From: Candidatus Bilamarchaeaceae archaeon
GTDB taxonomy: Archaea; Micrarchaeota; Micrarchaeia; Anstonellales; Bilamarchaeaceae
Length of the DNA: 41,683 bases
Direction of reading: 5' to 3'
Assembly: GCA_035290745.1 (NCBI GenBank)
Contig: DATDTS010000068.1
Span: 1 to 41,683 of the forward strand
Shown here piece after piece: positions 14,390-37,564 of this stretch (position 1 is the first letter of the stretch; each line of letters opens with the position of its first letter). A program made the translations under genes and the position numbers. The notes under the pieces are model-generated. The model saw only the letters and a program-made list of their open reading frames with translations, searched no databases and had not been told where the DNA came from.

Positions 14390-15544
14390 ATGAATCAGGT
14401 ACTTGTCAGTTCTGGAGTTATTTTTGGAGTTCACGGACTTGGAAATTTGTCTTACCATATTGCTAAAGGATTATATGAGCATAATATGTTAGAAAAAGTA
14501 TTTGCTTGGGATTACAAAAAAACAGACTTGCCTGACAATAAAATAAAAAGGATAGTTCCCATGGGATATTACCTAGAAAAGGTATTGGGCGGATTTAGAA
14601 ATAGAATATACAAAGACTTCCCGCAATATCTTTTACAATGCGAATTTTTTGATATAATGTGCTCTTATTATACAAATTCAACAAAAGCTAATATCGTATA
14701 TGGTGGTGGAGGCACGACCTTAAGAACTATGAAAAGGCTTAAGAAAAAAGGAATTAAATTTGTTTTTCCTGGATTTTCAACACACCCAAATGATCATTTT
14801 AGATTACAGATTGAAGAAGCAAAAAGATGGAATGTTAAATTATCTCTAAATTTAAGATCTGATTTTTTAATTAAAAAAATTAAAGAAGAGATAAAAAATT
14901 CAGATTATATAATTGCAGCATCAGAACTTGTAAAAGATAGTATGGTCCATAATGGGGTACCAAAACAGAATATATCCGTGATACCATTTGGAGTAGATAC
15001 TAAAAAGTTCAACCCTGGTAATAAAAAAGGGGGAAAATTTAGGGTTCTTTTTGCCGGTTCAATATGTTTAAGGAAAGGAGTTCCTTATTTATTAGAAGCA
15101 TGGGATTCACTGAACTTAAAAAATGCAGAATTGATTCTATCTGGAGGTATTCATTCTGAGATGAGGGAGATATTAAAAAAATATAAAAATAACAATACAA
15201 TACAAATAATAGAAAAAACAAATATAGAAAGGTTATATAAAACTGCAGATATCTTTGTTTTCCCAAGTATAGAAGAAGGATCGGCACTTGTAACCTACGA
15301 ATCGATGGCCAGCGGCCTCCCGATCGTCACAACTATGAACAGTGGTTCGGTAGCTAAAGACAAAAAAGACGGATTTATAATTCCAGCAAGAAATATAGAA
15401 AAAATAAAAGAAAAAATACTGTATTTCTATGATAATCCTAAGATGGTAAAAAAAATGGGCAAAAATGCAAGAAACCATATGGTAAAGGAATATACATGGG
15501 ATCATTTTGAAGAAAGAACAGCTGAATTTTTTTCAAGAATTTGA
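14390..15544 (+). CDS. glycosyltransferase, GT4/GT-B fold
   Basis: FRVLFAGSICLRKGVPYLLEAW and FVFPSIEEGSALVTYESMASGLPIVTT (E-x7-E) are present. Confidence 0.85.
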   Translation: MNQVLVSSGVIFGVHGLGNLSYHIAKGLYEHNMLEKVFAWDYKKTDLPDNKIKRIVPMGYYLEKVLGGFRNRIYKDFPQYLLQCEFFDIMCSYYTNSTKANIVYGGGGTTLRTMKRLKKKGIKFVFPGFSTHPNDHFRLQIEEAKRWNVKLSLNLRSDFLIKKIKEEIKNSDYIIAASELVKDSMVHNGVPKQNISVIPFGVDTKKFNPGNKKGGKFRVLFAGSICLRKGVPYLLEAWDSLNLKNAELILSGGIHSEMREILKKYKNNNTIQIIEKTNIERLYKTADIFVFPSIEEGSALVTYESMASGLPIVTTMNSGSVAKDKKDGFIIPARNIEKIKEKILYFYDNPKMVKKMGKNARNHMVKEYTWDHFEERTAEFFSRI

Positions 15545-15660
15545 TTTTATGCAACTGGATTCAAACTGTTTTATGTTTTTAGTGGCTAAGTGAAACTGAG
15601 TTAAAAAATTTTCAATTTCTCATTTGAAAAACGCAATGTGCAGAAACCATACACTTCCCG

Positions 15661-15911
15661 ATGGAACTGCGTTCCATGGGTCGGAGCGAACGAAGTTCGC
15701 TAGATGCATGAAACACGGTTTCATAGCATGCAGAGAACGAAGTTCTCTCGCACAGTGCATGGAGGAGCGCGTTTTTCAAATATTTGAACGAATGACCGAC
15801 AAATCGGTATCCGATTTGTGGTCCATTGAAATCTTGGATTTCAATAGGAGCATGAAACCCAGCCACCTACAAAAGCAGAGCTTTTGGAGGGACAAAGAAC
15901 AAAGTTCTTTG
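15661..15911. repeat. array of consecutive short perfect inverted repeats (hairpins) in a GC-enriched intergenic island; candidate structured ncRNA or ssDNA element
   Basis: Nine perfect inverted repeats were read directly, each with a 3-nt loop except the 15775-15788 palindrome. 15661-15677: ATGGAAC/tgc/GTTCCAT. 15685-15701: AGCGAAC/gaa/GTTCGCT. 15708-15724: ATGAAAC/acg/GTTTCAT. 15732-15748: AGAGAAC/gaa/GTTCTCT. 15775-15788: TTCAAATATTTGAA. 15799-15819: ACAAATCGG/tat/CCGATTTGT. 15825-15845: ATTGAAATC/ttg/GATTTCAAT. 15870-15886: CAAAAGC/aga/GCTTTTG. 15893-15911: CAAAGAAC/aaa/GTTCTTTG. The confidence refers to the existence of the repeats, not to any function. Confidence 0.9.
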
Positions 15912-15953
15912 GATTTTGGCTGGGTGCTCTTCGTTCAAATCATATAAACTGCA

Positions 15954-16901
15954 CTACTCCTTCTTCATAAAATATTCAATAGTTCTCTTGAGTCCATCAT
16001 CAAGTTTTACTTTAGGTTTCCACCCTAAAAGTTTTTCAGCCTTTGAAACATCAATAGAATAGTTCATTATCTCATTTTTTTTATACTCAATAGCACCATA
16101 GTCTATTAAGGCACTTTTTCCCATAATCTTACCTATGTTTTCGGCAATGTTTTTTATTTTATAGGATTTGCCATAGCCAACATTTATTATTTCTCCACTT
16201 GTTTTTTTATGCATAGCACCTGCAATAAGTTGTGCTTCAATTAAATCATCGATGTACAAAAAATCCCTAGTCTGCTCACCAGGAGTCATTTTAAAGTTCT
16301 GACCCATGTTTAGACTTTTTATTAAAGAAGGAATAAACATTTCTTCTCCTTGTTTTGGTCCATATACGATAGTTGTTCTCAACATTATTGCTTTTATGTT
16401 GTATAATTTATAGAATAGTTTCAAAAGTTGGTCTGCCGAAGATTTTGAAAATGCATAAGGAGATTCCGGGTTATCACTCATACTTTCTGTAACCGGAATT
16501 TCTACGCTACCATACTCCTCTATAGTACCAAGAGTTATTACAGGGATAGTAAGATTAGACTTAACTAACCCATTTAGCAGATTTAAAAGTCCTATCACAT
16601 TTATATCTATCAATGAATAAAAACTTTCAACCCCTCCCCCCCTATTCTTGTCGGCTGCAAGATGGAAAATAAAATCTGGTTTGATCTCATCTATTTTGTT
16701 AATAACCTCATTTTTTTCTCTTATATCAACAAAATATTGTTTTGTTAGGTTATTTTGATAAAAAACTTTTTTTTCGTTTTTCGACATTAGGTAAACCTTT
16801 GCACCAATGTTGAGTAATCTATCCTGTAGATATGAACCAATAAAACCAGTTGCACCAGTTATAAGTACTGTCTTGTCGATATATTCCTCTTTATATCCCA
16901 T
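15954..16901 (-). CDS. NAD-dependent epimerase/dehydratase family (extended SDR), possible nucleotide-deoxysugar 4-reductase
   Basis: VLITGATGFIGSYLQDRL Rossmann motif and YAFSK catalytic motif. It lies directly downstream of rfbH on the same strand. Confidence 0.8.
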   Translation of the reverse strand: MGYKEEYIDKTVLITGATGFIGSYLQDRLLNIGAKVYLMSKNEKKVFYQNNLTKQYFVDIREKNEVINKIDEIKPDFIFHLAADKNRGGGVESFYSLIDINVIGLLNLLNGLVKSNLTIPVITLGTIEEYGSVEIPVTESMSDNPESPYAFSKSSADQLLKLFYKLYNIKAIMLRTTIVYGPKQGEEMFIPSLIKSLNMGQNFKMTPGEQTRDFLYIDDLIEAQLIAGAMHKKTSGEIINVGYGKSYKIKNIAENIGKIMGKSALIDYGAIEYKKNEIMNYSIDVSKAEKLLGWKPKVKLDDGLKRTIEYFMKKE

Positions 16902-37465: not shown

Positions 37466-37477
37466 TAGGCTAACTTA

Positions 37478-37520
37478 TATACTCGACCAACAATCGGAAA
37501 AACATAGTTGGTCGAGTATA
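37478..37520. repeat. perfect 14-bp inverted repeat with 15-nt spacer just after the GT-C gene stop (possible terminator hairpin or operator)
   Basis: TATACTCGACCAAC (37478-37491) and GTTGGTCGAGTATA (37507-37520) are exact reverse complements. Confidence 0.85.
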
Positions 37521-37523
37521 GCT

Positions 37524-37546
37524 GATCCAAATAATATATTTGGATC
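37524..37546. promoter_or_regulatory. perfect 10-bp inverted repeat overlapping a TATA-like box upstream of the secretion-ATPase gene
   Basis: GATCCAAATA ata TATTTGGATC. The AT core AAATAATATATTT is centred about 30 nt upstream of the ATG at 37565. Confidence 0.6.
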
Positions 37547-37564
37547 ACAATAACTGTGTATATT

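Follow-up and report, generated by a model that had tools for sequence, protein, structure and literature searches.

Between the genes of the window (the whole stretch of DNA that was analysed, 41,683 nt of a metagenome-assembled genome of a Candidatus Bilamarchaeaceae archaeon; Micrarchaeia, DPANN), there is only one large gap, all others being shorter than 100 nt, and the question is what this gap contains. It comprises 409 nt (15545-15953) between two convergent genes, one for a GT4 glycosyltransferase (ORF 14390-15544, plus strand) and one for an SDR/epimerase-type sugar enzyme (15954-16901, minus strand), and within it an island (15631-15930) has a G+C content of 0.463, as compared to 0.333 in the window and 0.32 in the flanks. 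A preliminary description of the sequence had seen in this island a chain of short hairpins and thus a candidate for a novel structured RNA or ssDNA element, and the observation of a hairpin-rich island is confirmed. Eight perfect triloop hairpins with stems of 7-9 bp and loops of 3 nt lie within 15661-15911, with seven more in the remaining 41 kb and about five expected from shuffles per whole window. The core GAAC-N3-GTTC occurs four times in the window, always within the island (0.36 expected), and the long-range pair ACCCAGCCA/TGGCTGGGT (15857-15865/15917-15925) as well as the direct repeats that had been claimed are present in the sequence; only the supposed AT-rich hairpin at 15609-15630 turned out to be a chance pairing of the flank with an element terminus. 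When folded, the island is far better than shuffled controls, none of which equalled it, with RNA minimum free energies of -136.8 for the plus strand (z -8.3) and -144.6 for the minus strand (z -10.4), and with a z of -11.5 when it is folded as DNA. Both strands fold about equally well because nearly all pairs are Watson-Crick. The gap thus harbors a real, highly non-random and unannotated structured element, in which, as had been proposed, the pairing is maintained rather than the sequence.

What had been overlooked are a TCA on either side of the island and two perfect closing stems of 11-13 bp (ATTTGAA...TTCAAAT), both beginning with ATTTGAA, by which the island is divided into two adjoining modules, each of about 158 nt, in an element of 317 nt (15623-15939; all positions of the parts are given on the plus strand). 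Module X (M1; 15623-15780, 158 nt, TTTGAAAAACGC...GCGTTTTTCAAA) is closed by a perfect 13-bp stem (15622-15634/15769-15781), after which a T5 run is found on both strands, and contains four triloop hairpins (15661-15677, 15685-15701, 15708-15724 and 15732-15748) that are laid out as a 47-nt direct repeat of one hairpin pair. A TA (15781-15782), the center of the 14-bp palindrome TTCAAATATTTGAA, forms the junction to module Y (M2; 15783-15939, 157 nt, TTTGAACGAA...TTCGTTCAAA), which is closed by a perfect 11-bp stem (15782-15792/15930-15940). According to an alignment of copies, module Y consists of a 58-nt frame termed B (15782-15795, 15850-15865 and 15917-15940), invariant at every frame position when compared with other copies, and of two inserted blocks of two hairpins each. 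Block 1 (15796-15849, 54 nt), common to the window and locus L139, forms the hairpins 15795-15823 (GACC..GGTC, one bulge) and 15825-15845; the first of these has, in L139, an apex with other bases on both arms. Block 2 (15866-15916, 51 nt, hairpins 15866-15890 and 15893-15911) occurs in the window copy only, where it sits in place of the 4-nt apical loop of the long-range stem already mentioned. The tips of the window copy are symmetric and form a 6-bp terminal inverted repeat, TTTGAA/TTCAAA, and directly outside of them lie the left (15620-15622) and the right (15940-15942) copies of TCA.

Whether this element is a fixed part of the locus can be judged from the alleles, which were gathered by looking up both flanking proteins in public assemblies. 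The 409-nt gap was found in six complete contigs (L002, L003, L006-L008 and L012), and the whole element is present also in L013, a contig that is cut at the left end. In two independent contigs (L001/L009 and L010) the gap has only 89 nt, with flanking proteins that are identical between the assemblies of both kinds. The difference amounts to exactly 320 nt, which is the 317-nt element plus the repeated TCA: empty sites read ...TTTCTCA|TATAAAC, with a single TCA that corresponds to the left copy and represents the target, and filled sites read ...TTTCTCA[TTTGAAAAACGC...317 nt...CTTCGTTCAAA]TCATATAAAC. A more diverged relative, L005 (GCA_964582725.1), has a gap of 114 nt and is empty at the same position. 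The main gap of L005 carries another, 26-nt two-hairpin insert. L006 is filled, yet on a flank haplotype that is otherwise seen with empty alleles, two SNPs (15718 and 15771, G>A) occur in filled alleles, and several contigs end exactly at the element boundary. The contig breaks at the boundary, the empty L005 and the haplotype of L006 point to a repeat that has recently moved or recombined within a mixed population. It could be argued that the filled state is ancestral and that the 89-nt alleles arose by precise deletions between the TCA repeats, and the element of L006 on an empty-type haplotype is compatible with such a loss, as it is with recombination. This is very unlikely, however, as the more diverged L005 is empty, the same frame with its TCA repeat is found at many unrelated loci, and precise deletion is hardly to be expected between repeats of only 3 nt. 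An element that had been ancestral and was then excised precisely would likewise have to be called mobile.

These unrelated loci were found by scanning metagenome contigs for the right end of module Y together with a next base that excludes the window's own flank, which resulted in nine contigs with other gene contexts (ribosomal proteins, A-type ATPase, proteasome, amidohydrolase). The family frame is present at about nine loci besides the window, and at least three of them belong to the window's own MAG, since three loci (four contigs) encode proteins identical to those of the window's NCBI MAG (HLD60144, HLD60148 and HLD60356; the window has HLD60185-60210). The copies share the plan TCA-[X: TKTGAAA...]-TA-[Y: TTTGAAY...RTTCAAA]-TCA with the same X-to-Y polarity in 11 of 11 copies, counts that are based on about nine loci and on contigs in which chimeric joins at the repeats are possible (L136 and L142 share one flank only, as do L137 and L140). 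TA joins both modules in all 11 folded copies, and the exact 14-bp palindrome occurs in L138, L141 and the window. All 11 copies are followed by TCA as the right flank; on the left, TCA is found in seven, TTA in three and CGA in one. In the commonest form, which has 119 nt, X is an 'A' hairpin (TGTGAAATTCGGCAC...GTGCCGAATTTACACA) and Y a 56-nt 'B' hairpin, and these A+B copies read CACATATTTGAA at the junction. One A+B copy gives a second pair of empty and filled sites, with TATTTCACCAAG in L255 and TATTTCA[119 nt]TCACCAAG in L256, again with an exact TCA repeat and the same polarity; further alleles at L139 and at the AA-kinase locus are all filled. In both pairs, the unit is integrated at 5'-TCA-3' in one orientation, and TCA is left on both sides.

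The copies differ widely in content, with sizes between 48 nt (L138, 461-508) and the 317 nt of the window. The 48-nt copy, together with 3 nt, lies in frame inside an amidohydrolase ORF, which has 17 additional amino acids in comparison to nine of nine homologs spanning this position. Copies that share the B frame differ in size by added blocks of two hairpins, and homologous inner hairpins of different copies have a common stem base and apices that differ on both arms, which indicates that pairing was kept by replacement and not by gradual compensation. At one locus that is represented in two metagenomes (L138 and L141), the A interiors are different, and in both the B interior is inverted relative to A, so that its bulges shift to the other arm. 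Conserved one-sided bulges are found in both hairpins, with A/G on the 3' arm of A and with T plus 5 nt on the 5' arm of B. At one locus, the alleles have either TTTA or TAAA as the 4-nt apical loop of B. Interiors are thus exchanged between copies, and interiors as well as loops flip. The family is characterized by precise gains or losses that involve a 3-nt repeat, by dispersal in multiple copies, by fixed polarity and by modular content, and it is very likely that the island is one copy of this family in the Bilamarchaeaceae archaeon, namely a composite, non-autonomous mobile 'double-hairpin' DNA element.

What remains of the preliminary description is therefore the real structured element, and not the conserved RNA gene of this locus that had been its main idea. 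A host gene dedicated to a structured non-coding RNA would agree with the very strong folding z-scores and with the enrichment of the island in G+C as compared to the AT-rich genome, the two SNPs would yield G-U pairs on the minus strand, and C(UUCG)G is found as the loop of one A variant, but such a gene is highly improbable. Absence from close relatives had been named at the outset as evidence that would speak against it, and the whole island is missing, and precisely so, in sibling strains that are nearly identical and in the more distant L005. The element is also multi-copy and variable in content, one copy lies within a coding frame, both strands fold alike, and the occurrence of interiors and loops in both orientations, between copies and between alleles, is how palindromic DNA behaves, whereas an RNA would have one defined sense strand. 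The alternative of a role at the DNA level, which had also been considered, fits the data better. In Rfam 15, a search that had been proposed at the outset, no match to the window reached the gathering score, the best sub-threshold match being a chance similarity (Glutamine-II, E 0.2), and the A+B copies gave nothing, with nothing real at E<=10 either, so that the claim that no known RNA family is present holds for the island and for the A+B copies. ARAGORN detected no tRNA in the window, and readings as hammerhead, C/D-box, H/ACA or tRNA were dropped as the respective motifs were absent by eye. The ORFs of the island are not genes, because they had no match in Pfam and a protein-database search with the 107-aa ORF matched only the same locus. 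In L006, a false 146-aa gene has been called across the element.

The family was not encountered in several other places. Blastn and regular-expression searches gave no further family copies inside the window; a 10-bp inverted repeat of TTTGAAAGAT in a SIS gene is due to chance, because the encoded domain is uninterrupted. The other Micrarchaeota contigs that were inspected (L147-L149) contain no family members, and blastn against plasmids and phages gave no match. Among viral contigs, five of seven patterns had no matches and two had chance matches only, one being a module A 17-mer and the other a junction 17-mer with 97 matches, none of them with arms. A pattern of three GAAC-N3-GTTC cores, which is too loose, was found in at least 120 stretches of genome contigs (L015-L134), none of which was listed as element-like by blastn.

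A second insertion in the window has the same architecture. The gap 37466-37555 is the only other strongly structured gap (DNA fold z -9.8), and it contains a 70-nt element with a repeated ATA (37480-37552, plus strand; ATA at 37477-37479 and 37550-37552) that forms two hairpins, one with a 14-bp stem (37478-37520) and one with an 11-bp stem and an ATA loop (37523-37547). This site is filled in the window and in L248-L251, and it is empty in L247, which lacks exactly 73 nt (...AACTTATAACTGTG). The sequence is unrelated to that of the first family and there are no terminal inverted repeats. The structured gaps of the window are thus the two polymorphic insertions only.

As to the question of how such elements move, the first comparison is with the prokaryotic MITEs (Correia, RUP, Nezha, Sulfolobus SM1-4), which are likewise small, non-coding, multi-copy, strain-variable and usually intergenic, have a short flanking direct repeat and a strong predicted secondary structure, and have no transposase of their own. 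IS5/PIF-like and IS3-like transposases make 3-bp duplications, and in a classical MITE a DDE transposase of such a type would bind the TKTGAA termini as double-stranded DNA and produce the TCA duplication by staggered cuts. Such a transposition is possible, though less likely than not: the element is non-coding, dispersed and smaller than about 500 bp, the two empty/filled pairs have exact 3-nt direct repeats as a target-site duplication, the unrelated second element has its ATA repeat, 6 bp at the tips of the window copy form a terminal inverted repeat, and DPANN genomes have been reported to be rich in MITEs (PMC11602168). However, terminal inverted repeats of at least about 10 bp that match a parent IS are absent, as they do not exceed 6 bp, match at 5 of 6 positions in the A+B copies and are missing in the second element. 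Unlike in MITEs, the ends are formed by the element's own hairpins, each self-complementary and flush with the boundary, in an arrangement of two abutting palindromes whose content varies from the smallest to the largest copy. The orientation of the non-palindromic TCA is fixed relative to the X-to-Y order, which a two-fold symmetric transpososome does not predict, and a cognate IS is not known, nor was a related one found near any copy. More generally, no transposase or recombinase gene was detected near any copy, that is, in the 41.7-kb window and in the short copy-bearing loci.

Fixed polarity and end hairpins without real terminal inverted repeats are features of IS200/IS605-type derivatives such as PATEs and REP/BIME sequences, which depend on Y1 HUH enzymes (TnpA, RAYT) and which, like the elements described here, are mosaics of palindromic units and plausible single-strand substrates. 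If the family were PATE- or REP-like in this sense, it would move as single-stranded DNA, with a Y1 HUH enzyme reading the end hairpins and inserting the unit 3' of T-Y-A, and the right TCA would be part of the element. This is a doubtful but serious possibility. It is in agreement with the strict polarity relative to TCA, with the invariant right and variable left flank, with the conserved one-sided bulges, and with the TCA-sense (top) strand being slightly more stable than the bottom strand in nine of nine A+B copies. In IS608, the cleavage sites are 19 and 10 nt away from the hairpin feet, whereas the hairpins of the present elements abut the boundaries. The flanks are exactly identical in the two verified events and in the unrelated element, which resembles a true duplication, the B interior can be inverted and its bulges are then moved to the other arm, no GTAG or CGTC tag was noticed beside the stems when the copies were read by eye, and no gene of a TnpA or RAYT was seen in the 41.7-kb window and the short loci. 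The flanks point in both directions, since their asymmetric conservation favors a target on one side and an element end on the other, whereas the ATA repeat of the unrelated element favors a true duplication. In its workings, the element resembles the selfish repeats of the MITE or REP type, and it has some, but not all, characteristics of the IS200/IS605 type.

The absence of real terminal inverted repeats, the flush hairpins with one-sided bulges, and the fixed non-palindromic target argue against a symmetric double-strand DDE mechanism and in favor of an enzyme that recognizes a strand in its folded form or the junction of a circle, as IS200/IS605-like or IS110-like systems do. A staggered-cut duplication, however, is at least as good an explanation of the exact 3-nt repeats, among them the ATA of the unrelated element. 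A strand-specific route with a folded or circular intermediate, either IS200/IS605-HUH-like or IS110-like, is thus only slightly favored over a DDE cut-and-paste mechanism. The transposing unit would consist of two self-complementary modules that are joined by TA and lack long terminal inverted repeats, and it would be moved in trans by a putative enzyme that is encoded elsewhere, recognizes the folded hairpin ends and joins them at the 3-nt core. As the comparison of copies suggests, growth may occur by nested insertion or by templated palindrome formation; TCA flanks are not found on all inner blocks.

The shape of the modules also recalls integron attC sites, which are imperfect hairpins with a basal AAC...GTT, asymmetric bulges of extrahelical bases on one side and a variable apical structure, and integrons are known in Archaea. 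Module Y is closed by TTTGAAC...GTTCAAA, which places AAC/GTT where the R''/R' boxes have them, and the modules have attC-like asymmetric bulges and variable apices. That they are attC-like folded recombination sites or empty cassettes is nevertheless extremely unlikely: the consensus RYYYAAC/GTTRRRY is matched at only 5 of 7 positions on each side, empty sites lack both arms, which places the crossover outside of the stem and not at G|TT, and the window contains neither an integrase nor a cassette array.

In their behavior, the closest analogs appear to be the Rickettsia palindromic elements and the G+C-rich hairpin elements of mitochondria. Rickettsia palindromic elements insert in frame into protein-coding genes (PMC10969869), and with them the family shares the palindromic repeat, the small-genome organism and the in-frame gene insertion, as seen in the amidohydrolase of L138. 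It differs from them in that it occurs in another domain of life, with one in-frame case and with no sign of a conserved encoded peptide, and the likeness is one of behavior. A double-hairpin architecture is already known in mitochondria. The hairpin elements found there (GC42, Allomyces double-hairpin elements, sponge RHEs) are also G+C-enriched in AT-rich compact genomes, with short target repeats, presence/absence polymorphism and mergers of palindromes, and without a known transposase; GC42 of yeast has an AG target repeat, and its palindromes merge and shuffle into larger clusters (PMC4478555). In contrast to these, the present family resides in an archaeal chromosome, uses a TCA target and has a fixed hairpin order, and the comparison is meant as an analogy that implies no homology. 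In the literature that was searched, no account of this double-hairpin architecture in Micrarchaeia was found. It may be, and this is proposed tentatively, that double-hairpin elements without terminal inverted repeats form a class of archaeal mobile DNA with a mechanism of its own, whose members, probably in the form of folded single strands or of small circles, integrate at a 3-nt TCA core with a single orientation, and whose hairpin pairs become nested into G+C-rich islands with flip-flopping interiors, in which case a DPANN enzyme would be the candidate for their mobilization.

At the locus of the window, the element would be a selfish passenger within the 3' region that both convergent sugar-pathway genes have in common, and, if co-transcribed, it would provide them with a 3' structure of great stability. 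The T5 runs make it conceivable that the element acts at the convergent 3' ends. A host function as terminator, as RNA stabilizer or as protein-binding array may also exist. A terminator and promoter consensus scan of the island gave nothing above shuffles, and the sibling strains manage without the element.

Small palindromic mobile elements for which no enzyme is known, such as the Rickettsia palindromic elements, the mitochondrial GC clusters and the double-hairpin elements, are a long-standing puzzle, and for this puzzle the family provides clean material, with verified empty and filled alleles, a fixed target, a fixed polarity and graded sizes. As the host genome has only about 1 Mb, the list of candidate enzymes is short. 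The example also serves as a warning that strong folding z-scores of a G+C-rich island, in a genome that is AT-rich, are no proof of an RNA gene. Since the elements break metagenome assemblies at their boundaries and create false ORFs, it is advisable to mask them in the annotation of DPANN MAGs. At the locus described here, they bring strain-level variation to a surface-glycan island.

Both mobile insertions lie in the strain-variable glycan-island region of the window, which over positions 1-41683 consists nearly entirely of a surface-glycan and nucleotide-sugar biosynthesis island with many GT2/GT4 glycosyltransferases, epimerases/dehydratases, DegT aminotransferases and a flippase, followed by a pair formed by an archaeal-type pilus ATPase and a membrane protein. 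The second insertion is found upstream of the T2SS/FlaI-like ATPase gene and is likewise a double hairpin (stems of 14 bp and 11 bp); with its repeat it occupies 37477-37552, comprising 70 nt plus a repeated ATA. Its sequence is unrelated to that of the main element, the 317-nt non-coding double-hairpin insertion between the GT4 and SDR genes, and one assembly (L247) is precisely without it.

At the main-element locus, the relative L005 (GCA_964582725.1) lacks the 320-nt insertion in the gap homologous to 15545-15953, and its target position reads TTA as opposed to TCA. Its gap contains an insert of its own, the 26-nt GTGGATTCCACCAGTCTATTTGACTG about 37 nt past the GT4 stop, which folds as two small hairpins. 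Among the filled alleles, the only SNPs inside the main element are at 15718 and 15771, both G>A and both at stem positions, where they are expected to give C-A mismatches on the plus strand and G-U pairs on the minus strand, a weak indication with n=2. Both strands of the element retain long open frames, in the window of 107 aa and 84 aa, which give rise to spurious ORFs; in L006 a gene caller's 146-aa "protein" (P0001, 3955-4395) spans the element from end to end.

A minimal copy of the family, the 48-nt doublet ATTTGAATCaacGATTCAAAT and ATTTGAAAAATagagaaaATTTTTCAAAT (within L138 458-511), lies inside an amidohydrolase/MTA-deaminase-like ORF, the reading frame of which is kept. The doublet adds 17 aa that are absent in all nine aligned homologs spanning the region (9/9), and such an in-frame insertion into a coding gene resembles the behaviour of the Rickettsia palindromic element (RPE). 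Contigs with the commonest family form, the A+B element, share its flank on one side only at an AA-kinase locus (L136, L142, L261-L266) and in L137 and L140, with different genes on the other side, which reflects either recombination or inversion between two identical A+B copies or joins made by the assembler across the repeat.

A further structured stretch, richer in G+C, is found in L254 (9100-9288) about 1 kb to the left of the window, where the contig ends. A long stem closes it, it contains a TTTGAAAT...ATTTCAAA hairpin as well as one with a triloop, and on the minus strand it terminates in T8. No Rfam family matches it, and it could represent either one more element or an RNA that lacks annotation. 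The stretch L139 780-1030, seen also in L270 and L272, includes an intron-containing tRNA that scores 50.9 bits in Rfam and was missed by ARAGORN. Less than 150 nt after it come AGAGAACaaaGTTCTCT, ATTTACCataGGTAAAT and ATTGAACttcGTTCAAT, each a solitary triloop hairpin; an expanded A+B element follows further downstream and, directly past this, two further hairpins.
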